Origin: a virus
Taxonomy: Duplodnaviria; Heunggongvirae; Uroviricota; Caudoviricetes
Virus record (IMG/VR): IMGVR_UViG_2713897161_000005
Direction: 5' to 3' (one strand)
DNA length: 45,139 nucleotides
How positions within the stretch are numbered: the first letter of the stretch is position 1; every line of letters starts with the position of its first letter. Positions 2,859 to 44,678 of this stretch are shown here, piece after piece. The position numbers and the translations under genes are program-made. The notes under the pieces were generated by a model. That model did not search any database. It had not been told where the DNA came from and saw only the letters and a list, made by a program, of their open reading frames with translations.

Positions 2859-3606
2859 NNNNNNNNNNNNNNNNNNNNNNNNNNNNNNNNNNNNNNNNNN
2901 NNNNNNNNNNNNNNNNNNNNNNNNNNNNNNNNNNNNNNNNNNNNNNNNNNNNNNNNNNNNNNNNNNNNNNNNNNNNNNNNNNNNNNNNNNNNNNNNNNNN
3001 NNNNNNNNNNNNNNNNNNNNNNNNNNNNNNNNNNNNNNNNNNNNNNNNNNNNNNNNNNNNNNNNNNNNNNNNNNNNNNNNNNNNNNNNNNNNNNNNNNNN
3101 NNNNNNNNNNNNNNNNNNNNNNNNNNNNNNNNNNNNNNNNNNNNNNNNNNNNNNNNNNNNNNNNNNNNNNNNNNNNNNNNNNNNNNNNNNNNNNNNNNNN
3201 NNNNNNNNNNNNNNNNNNNNNNNNNNNNNNNNNNNNNNNNNNNNNNNNNNNNNNNNNNNNNNNNNNNNNNNNNNNNNNNNNNNNNNNNNNNNNNNNNNNN
3301 NNNNNNNNNNNNNNNNNNNNNNNNNNNNNNNNNNNNNNNNNNNNNNNNNNNNNNNNNNNNNNNNNNNNNNNNNNNNNNNNNNNNNNNNNNNNNNNNNNNN
3401 NNNNNNNNNNNNNNNNNNNNNNNNNNNNNNNNNNNNNNNNNNNNNNNNNNNNNNNNNNNNNNNNNNNNNNNNNNNNNNNNNNNNNNNNNNNNNNNNNNNN
3501 NNNNNNNNNNNNNNNNNNNNNNNNNNNNNNNNNNNNNNNNNNNNNNNNNNNNNNNNNNNNNNNNNNNNNNNNNNNNNNNNNNNNNNNNNNNNNNNNNNNN
3601 NNNNNN
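2859..3606. other. N-run (748 nt, unresolved or masked sequence)
   Basis: Continuous n characters; ORFs crossing it are artefacts. Confidence 0.99.
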
Positions 3607-28678: not shown

Positions 28679-29560
28679 NNNNNNNNNNNNNNNNNNNNNN
28701 NNNNNNNNNNNNNNNNNNNNNNNNNNNNNNNNNNNNNNNNNNNNNNNNNNNNNNNNNNNNNNNNNNNNNNNNNNNNNNNNNNNNNNNNNNNNNNNNNNNN
28801 NNNNNNNNNNNNNNNNNNNNNNNNNNNNNNNNNNNNNNNNNNNNNNNNNNNNNNNNNNNNNNNNNNNNNNNNNNNNNNNNNNNNNNNNNNNNNNNNNNNN
28901 NNNNNNNNNNNNNNNNNNNNNNNNNNNNNNNNNNNNNNNNNNNNNNNNNNNNNNNNNNNNNNNNNNNNNNNNNNNNNNNNNNNNNNNNNNNNNNNNNNNN
29001 NNNNNNNNNNNNNNNNNNNNNNNNNNNNNNNNNNNNNNNNNNNNNNNNNNNNNNNNNNNNNNNNNNNNNNNNNNNNNNNNNNNNNNNNNNNNNNNNNNNN
29101 NNNNNNNNNNNNNNNNNNNNNNNNNNNNNNNNNNNNNNNNNNNNNNNNNNNNNNNNNNNNNNNNNNNNNNNNNNNNNNNNNNNNNNNNNNNNNNNNNNNN
29201 NNNNNNNNNNNNNNNNNNNNNNNNNNNNNNNNNNNNNNNNNNNNNNNNNNNNNNNNNNNNNNNNNNNNNNNNNNNNNNNNNNNNNNNNNNNNNNNNNNNN
29301 NNNNNNNNNNNNNNNNNNNNNNNNNNNNNNNNNNNNNNNNNNNNNNNNNNNNNNNNNNNNNNNNNNNNNNNNNNNNNNNNNNNNNNNNNNNNNNNNNNNN
29401 NNNNNNNNNNNNNNNNNNNNNNNNNNNNNNNNNNNNNNNNNNNNNNNNNNNNNNNNNNNNNNNNNNNNNNNNNNNNNNNNNNNNNNNNNNNNNNNNNNNN
29501 NNNNNNNNNNNNNNNNNNNNNNNNNNNNNNNNNNNNNNNNNNNNNNNNNNNNNNNNNNNN
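28679..29560. other. N-run (882 nt, unresolved or masked) between the lysis cassette and packaging genes
   Basis: Continuous n characters; ORFs crossing it are artefacts. Confidence 0.99.
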
Positions 29561-34080: not shown

Positions 34081-34720
34081 NNNNNNNNNNNNNNNNNNNN
34101 NNNNNNNNNNNNNNNNNNNNNNNNNNNNNNNNNNNNNNNNNNNNNNNNNNNNNNNNNNNNNNNNNNNNNNNNNNNNNNNNNNNNNNNNNNNNNNNNNNNN
34201 NNNNNNNNNNNNNNNNNNNNNNNNNNNNNNNNNNNNNNNNNNNNNNNNNNNNNNNNNNNNNNNNNNNNNNNNNNNNNNNNNNNNNNNNNNNNNNNNNNNN
34301 NNNNNNNNNNNNNNNNNNNNNNNNNNNNNNNNNNNNNNNNNNNNNNNNNNNNNNNNNNNNNNNNNNNNNNNNNNNNNNNNNNNNNNNNNNNNNNNNNNNN
34401 NNNNNNNNNNNNNNNNNNNNNNNNNNNNNNNNNNNNNNNNNNNNNNNNNNNNNNNNNNNNNNNNNNNNNNNNNNNNNNNNNNNNNNNNNNNNNNNNNNNN
34501 NNNNNNNNNNNNNNNNNNNNNNNNNNNNNNNNNNNNNNNNNNNNNNNNNNNNNNNNNNNNNNNNNNNNNNNNNNNNNNNNNNNNNNNNNNNNNNNNNNNN
34601 NNNNNNNNNNNNNNNNNNNNNNNNNNNNNNNNNNNNNNNNNNNNNNNNNNNNNNNNNNNNNNNNNNNNNNNNNNNNNNNNNNNNNNNNNNNNNNNNNNNN
34701 NNNNNNNNNNNNNNNNNNNN
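34081..34720. other. N-run (640 nt, unresolved or masked) inside the nin region
   Basis: Continuous n characters. Confidence 0.99.
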
Positions 34721-39419: not shown

Positions 39420-40070
39420 ATGAAAACTCAATTGATGGGAGAGCGCATTCGCGCTCGGAGAAAAGAACTCAAGATCAGACAGGCCGCACTTGGAAAGATG
39501 GTCGGCGTGTCTAATGTTGCCATATCTCAGTGGGAACGCTCTGAGACAGAGCCAAATGGAGAGAATCTTCTCGCCCTGGCTAATGCGTTGAAGTGTTCCC
39601 CTGACTATCTGATGAAAGGAGAGGAAAGTCTTTCAAACATTGCCTATCACAGTAGGCATGATCCAAGAGGGTCATACCCTCTGATTAGCTGGGTGAGCGC
39701 AGGATGCTGGATGGAAGCTGTAGAACCATATCATAAGCGTGCAATAGATAACTGGTACGATACAACCGTAGACTGTTCAGAAGATTCGTTTTGGTTGGAC
39801 GTGAAGGGAGACTCAATGACGGCTCCGGCCGGTCTCAGTATCCCTGAAGGAATGATAATACTCGTAGATCCTGAAGTAGAGCCGCGTAACGGGAAACTGG
39901 TAGTTGCAAAGCTCGAAGGAGAAAACGAGGCAACTTTCAAGAAGTTAGTTATTGATGCAGGCAGGAAGTTTCTAAAACCACTTAACCCACAATATCCGAT
40001 GATCGAGATCAACGGAAACTGCAAAATCATCGGCGTAGTTGTCGATGCAAAACTAGCAAACCTTCCATAA
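39420..40070 (+). CDS. cI: CI-type prophage repressor (HTH + S24 LexA-like peptidase domain)
   Basis: 216 aa; N-terminal HTH (IRQAALGKMVGVSNVAISQWER); C-terminal ...GDSMTAP... serine-peptidase-like region; divergent from cro. Confidence 0.8.
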   Translation: MKTQLMGERIRARRKELKIRQAALGKMVGVSNVAISQWERSETEPNGENLLALANALKCSPDYLMKGEESLSNIAYHSRHDPRGSYPLISWVSAGCWMEAVEPYHKRAIDNWYDTTVDCSEDSFWLDVKGDSMTAPAGLSIPEGMIILVDPEVEPRNGKLVVAKLEGENEATFKKLVIDAGRKFLKPLNPQYPMIEINGNCKIIGVVVDAKLANLP

Positions 40071-40093
40071 GGGGGCATTCGCCCCTTTTTTTT
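40071..40093 (+). terminator. Intrinsic terminator immediately after cI
   Basis: GGGGGC-AUUC-GCCCC hairpin followed by T8. Confidence 0.6.
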
Positions 40094-40117
40094 ATTTCCC
40101 TTAAAAATCAAAGCCAA

Positions 40118-40194
40118 ACTTAAGTTACGAAAGAAAATTTAAGTTTTCTTCAAAAATACTCTTGACCATTAATTAAAGAGATCTTAAATTTAAG
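40118..40194 (+). promoter_or_regulatory. OL/PL region
   Basis: Operator-like palindromes ACTTAAGT (40118-25), ATTTAAGT (40137-44), CTTAAATTTAAG (40183-94); PL candidate TTGACC (40162-67), 17 bp, TAAATT (40185-90). Confidence 0.5.
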
Positions 40195-40236
40195 CCATCA
40201 GCAGGACGCTGGTAGCCAAACGGAACAGATTGGCAG

Positions 40237-40277
40237 GCTCTTTAACATTGATGGGATTGTCCCGCCGAAATGCGGGA
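40237..40277 (+). promoter_or_regulatory. nutL (boxA GCTCTTTAACA + boxB hairpin)
   Basis: boxA at 40237-40247, 12-nt spacer, boxB UCCCGCCGAAAUGCGGGA at 40260-40277; identical to the nutR copies. Confidence 0.65.
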
Positions 40278-40635
40278 ACTGAGTTTAACCAAACAGGAGG
40301 TGCCGTAATGGTGCACTAACGCGGTTAGACCGCAGCCGAAAGGCAATGCAGCAGTAATGATGCTGCCCCGAGTCGCGTAATGGCGAGCAGGTTTAGCAGA
40401 CCGATGTGAGGGTAAATAAGGGAACATGCTCCGGAAAGGCAGCGCGAATGCCAGACGCGCACCGGTTATCAGCGGCTAATAAGCGACAGAGGCTCAAGGG
40501 CATGAGCGCGCTCACTGCGAGAGTGTGAGTCAAAGAGTAGTTGGCTTTGGGGTAACGTGAAGTGCAGCTGCACGACGGCAACCGGAAGATAAGCACCCGG
40601 CGCGTCACCGCCAAAGTCAATCATCGGAGGTCAAC

Positions 40636-40935
40636 ATGACAGTAGTCATTACATATCTGGCTGACGATAACGCCAGAAATCGCCGCAGAGCACGCAGACA
40701 GGCTCAACGTGAACAGGCAATGCAAGAGCAGCGACTGGCGCGAAAAATTGCGCTAAAGCTCTCTGGTTGCGTCAGAGCAGATAAAGCAGCATCACTCGGA
40801 AGCCTTCGCTGCAAGAAGGCAGAAGAAGTCGAGCGTAAACAGAACCGTATTTACTACCGCAAGCCACGCAGTGAAATGGGTGTGACTTGTGTTGGTCGCC
40901 AGAAAATGAAATTAGGCAGCAAACCACTTATTTGA
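40636..40935 (+). CDS. N: Antiterminator N
   Basis: 99 aa; arginine-rich motif NARNRRRARRQAQ near the N-terminus; C-terminus ...YYRKPRSEMGVTCVGRQKMKLGSKPLI parallels lambda N; GGAGG RBS. Confidence 0.75.
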   Translation: MTVVITYLADDNARNRRRARRQAQREQAMQEQRLARKIALKLSGCVRADKAASLGSLRCKKAEEVERKQNRIYYRKPRSEMGVTCVGRQKMKLGSKPLI

Positions 40936-40943
40936 GGTGAGAT

Positions 40944-41414
40944 ATGACAAAATCATGGAGCGTACCTTTTCCTGAATCAGAAACTGAACATGATGGAATG
41001 CCTGTTTTCTGGAGATTCCAGGCGACAGTTGAAGAAGATGGGATAAAAATATTCGCACTTCAATATATAGCTTTTCATCAGACAGAGCATTATGCATGGT
41101 TGGTTCCTGCGCATTGGATTATTGATTATAAACCAGCACCAAATCAGTGGTTACGGGAATGGAAACAAAGGAGAAATAGATATGCAATTAAGAAAGTAGC
41201 AAAAAATGCAGAAAGATCTTTTGCATTCCCAACAAAGAAACTTGCCATTGAGAGTTTATTGCGCCGGAAGAAATACCATTTAATGAGAATCAAACAAGAT
41301 TTGGCTGTTGTATCAACTCTTGTCGATGGGATGAAGAATATTGATACATCAACACCAGATATTGAATATAACTTTGGACACAACCAAGAAACAGAAAATT
41401 GGGTATTCTACTAG
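40944..41414 (+). CDS. Hypothetical accessory protein (156 aa), AT-rich, immediately after N
   Basis: GAGGTGAG RBS; followed directly by an intrinsic terminator; no recognisable motif. Confidence 0.45.
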   Translation: MTKSWSVPFPESETEHDGMPVFWRFQATVEEDGIKIFALQYIAFHQTEHYAWLVPAHWIIDYKPAPNQWLREWKQRRNRYAIKKVAKNAERSFAFPTKKLAIESLLRRKKYHLMRIKQDLAVVSTLVDGMKNIDTSTPDIEYNFGHNQETENWVFY

Positions 41415-41438
41415 GCCGCATAGTCGGCCTTTATTTTT
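41413..41438 (+). terminator. Intrinsic terminator (tL1 position) after the 156-aa ORF
   Basis: AGGCCG-CAUAGU-CGGCCU hairpin followed by UUAUUUUU. Confidence 0.55.
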
Positions 41439-41460
41439 GGCATAAACAACAGAGGTGAAT

Positions 41461-41595
41461 ATGAACGCAGTTGAATTTACAAAATGGATGGCAGAGCAAG
41501 ATATCACAGGAGCCGACGAAAAGGCTGTGTACTACATGGCTCTGCTATGGATTCACAAAGCAAAAGAGGCTGCAAATGCTCTTGGAGGTGAGTGA
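41461..41595 (+). CDS. Small hypothetical protein (44 aa)
   Basis: Uncalled ORF with AGAGGTGA RBS; stop overlaps the next start (TGATG). Confidence 0.35.
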   Translation: MNAVEFTKWMAEQDITGADEKAVYYMALLWIHKAKEAANALGGE

Positions 41596-41804
41596 TGTGC
41601 GAGTTTTATGAAGCAGATATCAAACGCCCAGAAATGGCAAGTGATGCGACATTACGTGATTACTTCGCTGCTAAGGCTATGGCAGCAATAGTGCGCAGAT
41701 GGGACGGACATTCCTTTGGCGGTGGACAGAATTCACCACAGTACAAAGAATTAGCAGATGATGCCTACTTTATTGCTGATGCCATGCTCAAAGCTCGCGA
41801 ATAA
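41595..41804 (+). CDS. Hypothetical protein (69 aa)
   Basis: ATG at 41595 (track lists a GTG at 41592); coupled to the upstream small ORF. Confidence 0.4.
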   Translation: MCEFYEADIKRPEMASDATLRDYFAAKAMAAIVRRWDGHSFGGGQNSPQYKELADDAYFIADAMLKARE

Positions 41805-41938
41805 GCACTGTGTATTCATTCCAACGAGTGAATACACGGAGCAATGTCGCTCGTAACTAAACAGGAGTCGACTTGTTCTGATTATTGGAAATCTTCTTTG
41901 CCCTCCAGTGTGAGGGCAATTTTTTTGATGGAGGATAT

Positions 41939-42907
41939 ATGAGTGAAGTAACAGATTTAGTTGTTATTGAAAAAGCAAATGCAATGACTGTATTTCAGTC
42001 TGCCGACCAGATTGAAGAAATTCTCCAAAAGGTTGAACGTGAAGTTATGTCCTTTGTGCCTGATATCACAACGGCAAAGGGCAGAAAGGAGATTGCTTCT
42101 CTGGCGTATAAAGTTGCGCAGACGAAAACATATCTCGATGGTCTTGGCAAAGACCTTGTTGCTGAACTGAAGGAAATTCCAAAGCTAATTGATGCCAACC
42201 GCAAGACAGTGCGCGATCGCCTTGATGAACTGAAAGCCAAGGCTCGCCAGCCTCTTACTGATTATGAGGAGGAACAGGCGCGGATTAAAGCCGAAGAAGA
42301 AGCTAAGGCAGCAGCTGAAGCTCTCGCAAAGCAAATTGAGTCTGATCATGAAATAGCTATTTTGATGGATCGCGAATTTGACCGCCAAAGAGAAGAGGCA
42401 AGACTCAAAGCGGAGCAGGAAAAGCGAGAGCATGAAGAACGCTTAAAAAGAGAAGCTGAAGAGAAAGCCAGAGCAGAAGCCGAAGCAAAGGCAAAAGCCG
42501 AAATTGAATCAGCAGCAAGGCGAGAAGCAGAAGCTAAGGCCGCAGCGGAACGTGCAGAGCGTGAACGCATTGAAGCCGAGCAACGAGCACAGCGCGAAGC
42601 AAAAGAGGCAGCAGAACGAGCTGAAAGAGAAAAGCAGGCGGCAATTGAAGCAGAACGCCGAAAAGCACAGGAGGAGGCTGAACGAATCCGGCGCGAGGCT
42701 GAAGCAAAAGAGCAAGCCAGAATAGCAGAAGAAAAAAGAATCAAGGAAGAAGAAGAGCGTAGAGCAAAGGATAAAGCTCACCGGAAAGAAGTAAATAACA
42801 AAATACTTGCTGACCTTATCAAGGTTGGCGCATCAGAAGATGTTGCTAAAAATATCATAACAGCCATCGTAAAAGGCGAAGTATTCGCAACAAAAATAAC
42901 CTACTAA
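41939..42907 (+). CDS. Coiled-coil protein with charged E/A/K/R-rich repeat core (322 aa)
   Basis: Start at ATG 41939 with GGAGGA upstream (track start is TTG at 41885); central ~150 aa of AEAEAKAKAE/ERAEREK-type repeats. Confidence 0.5.
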   Translation: MSEVTDLVVIEKANAMTVFQSADQIEEILQKVEREVMSFVPDITTAKGRKEIASLAYKVAQTKTYLDGLGKDLVAELKEIPKLIDANRKTVRDRLDELKAKARQPLTDYEEEQARIKAEEEAKAAAEALAKQIESDHEIAILMDREFDRQREEARLKAEQEKREHEERLKREAEEKARAEAEAKAKAEIESAARREAEAKAAAERAERERIEAEQRAQREAKEAAERAEREKQAAIEAERRKAQEEAERIRREAEAKEQARIAEEKRIKEEEERRAKDKAHRKEVNNKILADLIKVGASEDVAKNIITAIVKGEVFATKITY

Positions 42908-43200: not shown

Positions 43201-43355
43201 GTTTTACAGATAACTGGTCAGACGAAGAATTCATTCGTCAGATGAAAGATTTAATCGGTAACGAAGGAGATATTCATGTCACTTGCAACCACAGTGAAGG
43301 AGAGCAAGTTACAGAGGCGCATGTACACGCAGAAAGCTCTCTGGTTTCGCCATAA
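43197..43355 (+). CDS. Small hypothetical protein (52 aa)
   Basis: Uncalled ORF whose start overlaps the upstream stop (ATGA). Confidence 0.3.
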   Translation: MSFTDNWSDEEFIRQMKDLIGNEGDIHVTCNHSEGEQVTEAHVHAESSLVSP

Positions 43356-43454
43356 TGGTGACCGCGAAGGAATGCGGGTATGCCTTAATTTGTCCCGAGT
43401 CGAAGTATTAAATCAGCGTTATTTCCTTGGGCCGTGTCCATTCTGAGGTGAATT

Positions 43455-44162
43455 ATGGATTTGAACAAATTCGATGAGCCATTCAGCCCTGAAGATATCG
43501 AATGGCGAATACAGCAAAGCGGTAAAACACGCGATGGCAAAGTGTGGGCTATGGTGCTGGCTTATGTCACGAACCGGGCAATCATGAAACGCCTGGACGA
43601 TGTTTGCGGCAAAGCAGGATGGCGCAATGAATACCGCGATATTCCCAACAACGGCGGAGTTGAATGCGGCATATCAATCAAGATTGATTCCGAATGGGTA
43701 ACCAAATGGGATGCCGCTGAAAACACGCAGGTAGAAGCAGTAAAAGGTGGTCGTTCCGGTGCAATGAAGCGTGCTGCCGTTCAATGGGGAATAGGTCGGT
43801 ATCTGTATAACCTTGAGGAAGGTTTCGCACAAACATCTCTCGACAAAAAGCAGGGATGGCACAGGGCAAAACTCAAGGATGGAACAGGATTTTACTGGCT
43901 CCCTCCATCGCTGCCAGGCTGGGCAATCCCAGCATCAGATAACAAACCATCACCAGAAAATACCAACCAGAAATCTCCATCGGTTGACTGCGAACAAATC
44001 CTGAAAGACTTCAGCGATTATGCAGCGACAGAAACTGACAAGAAAAAACTCATCGAGCGTTATCAGCATGACTGGCAATTAATGGCTGGAAACGAGGAGG
44101 CGCAGGCTAAATGCGTTCAGGTAATGAACATCAGAGTTAACGAGCTAAAACAGGCGGCATAA
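43455..44162 (+). CDS. Single-strand annealing protein (Rad52/Sak-like, putative)
   Basis: 235 aa immediately upstream of ssb, occupying the bet/erf position; N-terminal region pattern resembles Rad52-type phage recombinases (from memory). Confidence 0.5.
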   Translation: MDLNKFDEPFSPEDIEWRIQQSGKTRDGKVWAMVLAYVTNRAIMKRLDDVCGKAGWRNEYRDIPNNGGVECGISIKIDSEWVTKWDAAENTQVEAVKGGRSGAMKRAAVQWGIGRYLYNLEEGFAQTSLDKKQGWHRAKLKDGTGFYWLPPSLPGWAIPASDNKPSPENTNQKSPSVDCEQILKDFSDYAATETDKKKLIERYQHDWQLMAGNEEAQAKCVQVMNIRVNELKQAA

Positions 44163-44678
44163 ATGGCAAGCAGAGGCGTAAATAAGGTGATCATTATTGG
44201 TCGCCTTGGGCATGATCCAGAAATCAGATATTCACCATCAGGAACGGCATTTGCAAACCTTACAGTTGCTACGTCAGAACAATGGCGTGATAAGCAAACT
44301 GGAGAGCAAAAGGAGCAGACGGAGTGGCACCGCGTGGTAATGAGCGGGAAACTGGCAGAAATTGCCAGCGAATATCTGCGAAAAGGCTCTGAGGTTTATC
44401 TTGAAGGAAAATTGCGGACAAGAAAATGGCAGGATCAAAGCGGACAGGATCGGTTCACTACCGAAGTCATCGTGGGCGTTGGTGGAACCATGCAAATGCT
44501 TGGTGGCAAGCAAGGAGGCAATGAACAGTCTTCACCTCAGCGAAATAATGGTCAGCAACAAAGACAGCAACCTCAGCAGCAGGGAAATCACAGCGAACCA
44601 CCTATGGATTTTGACGACGATATCCCCTTTGCACCAGTAACTCTCCCCTTCCCTCGTCACGCTATTCACGCAATTTAA
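44163..44678 (+). CDS. ssb: Single-stranded DNA-binding protein
   Basis: 171 aa; OB-fold N-terminus, Gly/Gln-rich linker, acidic C-terminal tail ...DDDIPF. Confidence 0.85.

Follow-up and report, generated by a model that had tools for sequence, protein, structure and literature searches.

An HK97 Gp45-type gene in a swappable cassette between N and the first leftward terminator of a Caudoviricetes genome

Results

We analyzed a 45,139-nucleotide stretch of viral DNA (Caudoviricetes; IMG/VR record IMGVR_UViG_2713897161_000005), here called the window, with a focus on a 156-amino acid (aa) gene of the HK97 Gp45 type that directly follows a gene for an N-like antiterminator. The signals and genes around it are collected in Table 1. 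The N-like gene ends 8 nt before the gp45-type start codon and is 97.5% identical to the N region of phage CUS-3; the Pfam N_peptide match of its product falls below threshold. At the other end of the gp45-type gene, a GC-rich 6-bp hairpin (41413-41430) is followed by TTTATTTTT (dG -9.6 kcal/mol, z -2.0). The region 39900-42100 contains eight terminator-like sites, compared with 2.0 +/- 1.3 in shuffled sequences. An initial annotation of this DNA had described an AT-rich, compositionally distinct gene immediately after N, with a ribosome-binding site (RBS) and with a tL1-like terminator directly behind it, and each of these elements is found at the locus.

Table 1. Genes and predicted signals at the gp45-type locus, with positions given in the window.
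Feature	Position	Strand	Remarks
Strong terminator-like site	40069..40096	+	Directly after cI; would insulate the gp45-type gene from prophage pRM transcription
pL-like promoter TTGACC-17-TAAATT	40162..40190	+	Sole promoter-like site upstream of the gene on this strand
nutL-like site	40237..40276	+	boxA-like GCTCTTTAACA (40237-40247) and boxB-like hairpin (40261-40276); assigned from sequence
N-like antiterminator gene, 99 aa	40636..40935	+	phrog_271, E 5e-37; directly upstream of the gp45-type gene
Homology block with HK97 and phi24B, ~98% identity	40882..41422	.	Last 54 nt of N, RBS, gene, and 8 nt beyond
Shine-Dalgarno sequence GAGGTG	40934..40939	+	Overlaps the N stop codon TGA (40933-40935)
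gp45-type coding sequence, 156 aa	40944..41414	+	ATG start; HK97 Gp45-type, PHROG 1636
Terminator-like hairpin AGGCCG/CGGCCT with T-run	41413..41438	+	Overlaps the gp45-type stop codon; putative tL1 equivalent
44-aa open reading frame	41461-41595		phrog_24660, unknown function
69-aa open reading frame	41595-41804		phrog_2201, unknown function

The layout of the operon suggests that the gp45-type gene is expressed early. The order of promoter, nut site, N, and terminator is the same as in the pL-nutL-N-tL1 unit of lambda, although the window differs from that immediate-early unit in having an accessory gene between N and the first terminator. Because of its place behind N and ahead of the first leftward terminator, the gp45-type gene is expected on the pL transcript with N, and because its RBS overlaps the N stop codon, its translation may be coupled to that of N. 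Placed before the first terminator, it should be made without antitermination; in lambda itself, ral is located beyond tL1. Judged from these signals, the gene would be expressed on the first leftward transcript, before antitermination is needed. A consensus scan of 39900-42100 detected no sigma-70-like site between pL and the gp45-type ATG, and thus no moron-like promoter belonging to the gene, although a weak or non-canonical promoter could escape such a scan. Since no promoter-like site lies inside or after N, and since a terminator follows cI, the gene should be silent in a repressed prophage.

The gp45-type open reading frame (ORF) is a real gene, given its composition-corrected length, its RBS, and the selection acting on it. 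Its GC content is 0.367 (GC3 0.293), against 0.466 for the window (masked runs excluded) and 0.49 for the upstream N-like gene. Only 0.07% of 471-nt segments are as AT-rich, which makes the ORF essentially the most AT-rich stretch of the window; like a moron, it is compositionally distinct from its neighbors. At the ORF's own base composition, 156 consecutive sense codons would arise by chance with a probability of about 4e-6. In comparison with the HK97 and phi24B copies, dN/dS is about 0.15; comparison with the copy of Salmonella phage NX263 (63% identity) gives a dN of 0.24 and a saturated dS. The gene is under clear purifying selection. Minus-strand ORFs that overlap it (43-79 aa) are without support. 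The window also contains three masked runs of the letter N, at 2859-3606 (748 bases), 28679-29560 (882), and 34081-34720 (640), which make its naive GC content too low and give rise to artefactual long ORFs.

The gp45-type protein belongs to a widely distributed phage family. It is 98.1% identical to HK97 Gp45 (AAF31125.1) over all 156 residues and matches phrog_1636, a PHROG of unknown function, at full length (E 1.3e-110; its residues 1-156 align with positions 1-156 of the 156-position profile). By its sequence, the gene is thus already known as HK97 gp45 and PHROG 1636; having been in GenBank since the HK97 genome, it is not novel as an object. What we add here is the exact boundaries of the cassette, a census of the slot between N and tL1, a confident fold model, and the reach of the family across phages. 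ORFs with 96-97% identity occur in about 80 deposited records of lambdoid or Shiga toxin (Stx) phages, all annotated as hypothetical, among them phi24B (vb_24B_11c), BP-4795, Min27, Stx2 converting phage I, and H-19B. The copy in Stx2 converting phage I is ORF-60c, annotated as “similar to phage HK97 Gp45”. Most Shiga-toxin phages sampled carry the gene, as do 598 of the 5426 complete Escherichia coli genomes (11%, or about one in nine), with up to four copies per genome. Within a plasmid collection, we found it only in phage-like, non-mobilizable records and never on mobilizable plasmids. Thus, there is no link to the anti-defence islands of plasmid leading regions.

Remote homology searches, which the initial annotation had proposed as a check, returned many relatives, all of them uncharacterized. 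An exhaustive profile search yielded 87 family clusters at 50% identity (E up to 1e-3), mostly of 130-160 aa. The homology is reciprocal, with the distant member P0048 recovering HK97 Gp45 by tblastn. Apparent domain fusions in two remote matches (P0062 and P0080) were rejected as repeat or low-complexity artefacts, and in another (P0052) the only addition is an N-terminal Cys-rich extension. Scans of the protein and 71 family members against Pfam, NCBIfam, and PADLOC matched nothing, in keeping with the earlier description of an accessory gene with no recognizable motif. In PADLOC-DB 2.0, the protein itself had only a chance-level match (E 0.025), and none of the 71 family members matched at E<=1e-3. 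Sequence searches of the PDB with two profiles gave chance matches only, and the literature searched for HK97 gp45, vb_24B_11c, and the PHROG identifiers contained no work on function.

The gp45-type gene is a precise, swappable cassette in a hypervariable slot that runs from the 3' end of N to the first leftward terminator. As in the window, the copies in HK97, phi24B, and Stx2 converting phage I lie directly after N with the same RBS junction. The N protein of the window differs from that of HK97 and phi24B in its N-terminal part, which is of the CUS-3 type. Judging from the alignment, the ends of the block shared with HK97 and phi24B are the cassette boundaries (Table 1). CUS-3 shares cI, pL, nutL, the N region, and the sequence from 41413 onward, and between these common flanks it has ral and a membrane-protein gene in place of the gp45-type gene.

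The first leftward terminator is part of the phage backbone rather than of the cassette. CUS-3 has its segment (41413-41453) at 100% identity but no gp45-type gene, whereas in HK97 and phi24B the segment is missing after the gene. The initial annotation had regarded the gene as closed by its own terminator, and this view is no longer tenable; unlike in a typical moron, no terminator travels with the gene.

We surveyed the slot in at least 120 viral contigs that have the same 21-nt N 3' end, 109 of which have enough flanking sequence. Among the matches listed for these 109 loci, the commonest first ORF after N is ral (36 loci), followed by a gene with an Nmad5 domain (23) and the gp45-type gene (21). 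The other occupants are an 83-aa phrog_2471 protein (8), the membrane protein phrog_3054 (5), DUF7446 (4), a 107-aa acidic phrog_1372 protein (4), DUF2528 (3), DUF7167 (2), and others (3). Most occupants start at an identical offset, 11 nt from the N stop codon, so the same RBS-ATG junction is reused. Some truncated gp45-type copies also exist.

Two of these occupants provide informative comparisons. Ral (PF11058), the restriction-alleviation protein of lambda and P22-like phages, counteracts type I restriction and enhances modification. It is early, dispensable, and swappable, and uses the same slot as the gp45-type gene, yet the two are not related in sequence: Ral has 66 aa and a Cys-rich motif, whereas the gp45-type protein has 156 aa and no Cys, and the Ral profile does not match it even at E<=1. 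The two genes lie side by side in phi367 (in the order N-ral-gp45) and in locus L119, which shows that they are stackable and not simple alternatives. The 107-aa acidic occupant is ORF184 of phage mEp213 (AFM76385.1). This cassette follows an identical N 3' end at exactly the same distance, although its sequence is unrelated to that of the gp45-type gene. A published screen of accessory genes locates ORF184 and ral in one accessory region and identifies ORF184 as a trigger of the gop-beta-cII abortive system (Silas et al., 10.1101/2023.04.06.535777). The gp45 family is not present in the 200-gene accessory library of that study.

More distant relatives keep to early regions and vary in their exact position. 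A 70%-identical relative again follows an N-like peptide. Relatives with 58-63% identity (prophages of Pectobacterium and Brenneria; loci L139 and L140, 4001-4477) are the last gene before xis-int, so there is no obligatory link of the gp45-type gene to N. As these relatives lie at the far end of the leftward operon, the cassette evidently moves from one accessory slot to a second within this operon. The 63%-identical copy stands at the head of a small operon in Salmonella phage NX263, a phage for which neither an integrase nor a repressor is annotated. In phages of Pseudomonas and Vibrio and in prophages, distant relatives are co-oriented in early regions, where their neighbors include genes for DNA methylases, a Lar-like restriction-alleviation gene, a DarB-like gene, RecE, RdgC, and helicase genes.

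The gp45-type protein is soluble, as judged from its sequence. It has a mass of 18.7 kDa, a pI of 9.05, no Cys, and seven Trp; residues 76-131 carry a net charge of +12, and both termini are acidic. No membrane segment was detected (maximum Kyte-Doolittle 19-residue mean 0.56, GRAVY -0.62). The protein thus has neither the membrane-spanning segment nor the signal peptide of the exclusion proteins SieB, RexB, HK97 gp15, and Cor, and its N-terminus is acidic. Nor does it have the strongly acidic surface of the DNA-mimic anti-restriction proteins Ocr, ArdA, and Arn. About eight Lys/Arg positions are conserved (24, 83, 84, 87, 91/92, 98, 108, and 109). Across the family, conservation extends to an aromatic-Arg/Lys pair at 23-24 in strand 1, G33, the E/Q46-T47 turn, K/R83-84, K87, R91/92-F-A-F, T97-K98, A101, R108-K109, a hydrophobic stripe along the long helix, and a C-terminal aromatic residue. 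The conserved positions include no catalytic-looking set of residues.

Structure prediction, the other check proposed by the initial annotation, gave a confident fold model for which no solved structural relative was found. An AlphaFold model built on 21 close homologues was poor (pLDDT 56), and an alignment of 71 sequences was needed. With these 71 diverse sequences, all five models reached a pLDDT of at least 95 (95.9, with a pTM of 0.83), owing to a strong co-evolution signal in the family. The model has a three-stranded antiparallel sheet (strands 19-30, 33-46, and 50-55), two short helices (57-61 and 66-74), a short fourth strand (83-86), and a 33-residue basic helix (98-130). In BFVD, 11 viral proteins match the model at E <1e-3, all uncharacterized and derived from Erwinia phage phiEa2809, Achromobacter phage phiAxp-3, Delftia phage RG-2014, and phages of Rhizobium, Sinorhizobium, and Tenacibaculum; a Cellulophaga phage protein lies just above the cut-off (E 1.7e-3). 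The top structural matches of the N-terminal sheet are weak and comprise Tudor, PWWP, and PipX-like small barrels. The model also resembles the AP2/ERF and integrase arm-type beta-sheet DNA-binding domains, which likewise have a three-stranded antiparallel sheet on a helix and a conserved aromatic residue plus Arg/Lys on the strands; this is a resemblance only.

Discussion

We tentatively favor the view that this swappable early accessory cassette encodes a basic protein whose target in the lytic cycle is a polyanion or a host protein, for counter-defence or host conditioning. The gene would be transcribed from pL together with N, so that the protein would appear as soon as infection or induction begins and would be absent from the repressed prophage. 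Its basic face might then bind DNA, RNA, or a host protein during the lytic cycle, and so help the phage, either against a host defence or by preparing the cell in some other way. Counter-defence appears the most plausible purpose because of the neighbors that the gene keeps: it shares its slot with ral and ORF184, and its distant relatives lie near DNA methylase genes and a Lar-like gene. Overall, the gp45-type gene is a reasonable but ordinary candidate for a counter-defence or host-conditioning factor.

An alternative is that the protein is a DNA-binding helper of the phage recombination or replication module, for example in protecting or organizing DNA that is entering the cell or replicating, with no target in host defence. 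The conserved basic surface would fit DNA binding, and the gene is always co-oriented with recombination or replication genes, which in lambdoid phages are ea10/ssb, gam, bet, and exo. The window has a 235-aa ORF (43455-44162) and an SSB-like ORF (44163-44678), both as read from their translations only, and distant relatives adjoin RecE-like genes, RdgC, or a superfamily-3 helicase. However, the gene is dispensable, being replaced by unrelated genes where the recombination module is the same; it moves within the operon, appearing either after N or just upstream of xis; and in the loci examined, no recombination gene co-varies with it. We consider such a role unlikely.

Somewhat less likely still is an immediate-early factor for transcription or host takeover, which would act on RNA polymerase, Nus factors, the nucleoid, or a host regulator. 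This would suit a gene that is apparently co-transcribed, and maybe translationally coupled, with N, and whose cassette has the conserved N 3' end as its left junction. Some Tudor, PWWP, and PipX-like domains bind RNA polymerase or regulators, and the weak matches of the N-terminal sheet to such barrels point in the same direction.

The initial annotation had assigned this slot to exclusion or restriction-alleviation functions. The restriction-alleviation part is upheld by the abundance of ral among the slot occupants, while the exclusion part is disfavored. It would make the gene a moron, that is, an exclusion or defence gene expressed by the prophage to block superinfecting phages. Defence genes are often found close to the immunity region of prophages, low GC is typical of morons, and the slot sometimes holds the small membrane protein phrog_3054, a possible exclusion factor. 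Against this, no promoter-like site separates pL from the ATG and the terminator after cI would block read-through from pRM; the terminator after the gene belongs to the backbone; the protein is predicted to be soluble, with no membrane segment; no family member matches PADLOC; and homologues occur in phages without annotated lysogeny genes. A role in exclusion expressed by the lysogen is thus unlikely, and we give it little credence. That the ORF is a selfish or decaying passenger with no benefit to phage or host, as the truncated copies and the lack of any reported phenotype might suggest, is highly improbable for a gene under strong purifying selection, in a family of at least 87 clusters whose co-evolution signal supports a high-confidence model, and present in about one in nine complete E. 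coli genomes.

A bolder form of the counter-defence reading is that the gp45 family founds a structurally new class of immediate-early phage proteins, which would neutralize a host defence or nuclease by using their conserved basic face to bind either nucleic acid or the defence protein. Such a class would be shared by Proteobacteria phages of both temperate and virulent lifestyles, and phages of Bacteroidota would have proteins related to it in fold. We regard this as doubtful. If true, the slot between N and tL1 would be a hotspot of counter-defence, and the Nmad5, DUF7446, DUF2528, and phrog_2471 cassettes would also be counter-defence genes. The disabling of a defence by this protein would bring a new fold into the anti-defence repertoire. 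Likewise, if the protein disables host defence or reshapes the handling of DNA or RNA by the host, it would bear on the spread of Stx phages between strains. The gp45-type gene is very common in these phages, and its slot can also hold ral or a gene known to trigger abortive infection. About ten cassette families, a number small enough to test, emerge from the slot analysis as targets for screening.

Other features of the window

The sequence downstream of the gp45-type gene differs between phages. The window differs from HK97 and phi24B in having a terminator at the gp45-type stop codon and two extra small ORFs. These two overlapping ORFs (44 and 69 aa; Table 1) and the terminator tail make up a segment (41423-41797) that HK97 and phi24B do not have, and both ORFs lie between two serial terminators, at 41413-41438 and 41898-41925. 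The sequence behind the gene in HK97 and phi24B is a different one, with a perfect 14-bp hairpin and then, some 100 nt farther on, another terminator; the counterparts of these two in the window are at 41808-41839 and 41898-41925, respectively. The hairpin (dG -21.7 kcal/mol, z -5.1; no T-run) stands directly after the gp45 stop codon in HK97 and phi24B and is displaced in the window by the terminator and the two small ORFs. It is possibly a site of RNA processing or pausing.

In CUS-3, a 140-aa ORF after ral was considered as a possible gp45 relative and rejected (hhalign probability 0.1%).

A GC-rich element of about 250 nt (40280-40530; core about 40295-40552) lies between nutL and N. It is not present in CUS-3, which has the same cI, pL, and N, and is found in mEp213 (99% identity), two Stx2c phages (89%), Hafnia phage yong1 (83.5%), and, in part, Providencia phage PSTCR7lys (86%). 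An Rfam search gave no match. The consensus fold of four sequences has 60 pairs, nine of them with compensatory double changes, including pairs in the hairpins 40348-40366, 40442-40460, and 40510-40530; the fold of the single sequence is not unusually stable (z -0.6). Based on these four sequences only, the element is a candidate structured leader RNA. Its 5' end (40295-40319) carries a strong AGGAGG RBS followed, after 7 nt, by the mini-ORF ATG GTG CAC TAA (40308-40319). This three-codon mini-ORF is kept in the Stx2c and Hafnia copies, and the Providencia copy reads ATG GTT TAG.

Farther downstream, a 322-aa protein (41939-42907) matches phrog_1376 and phrog_21365, both of unknown function. 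Its center has a very high content of E, K, A, and R and is possibly a coiled coil. A 56-aa ORF (43276-43446) closely resembles the accessory gene UDP0168 (AFH20475.1) of the screen library of Silas et al. Near the start of the window, a tRNA gene (1009-1080; 63 bits) is closely followed, on the same strand, by a 397-aa ORF (1209-2402), which is possibly an integrase. Together, the tRNA gene and this ORF may mark the attachment region.
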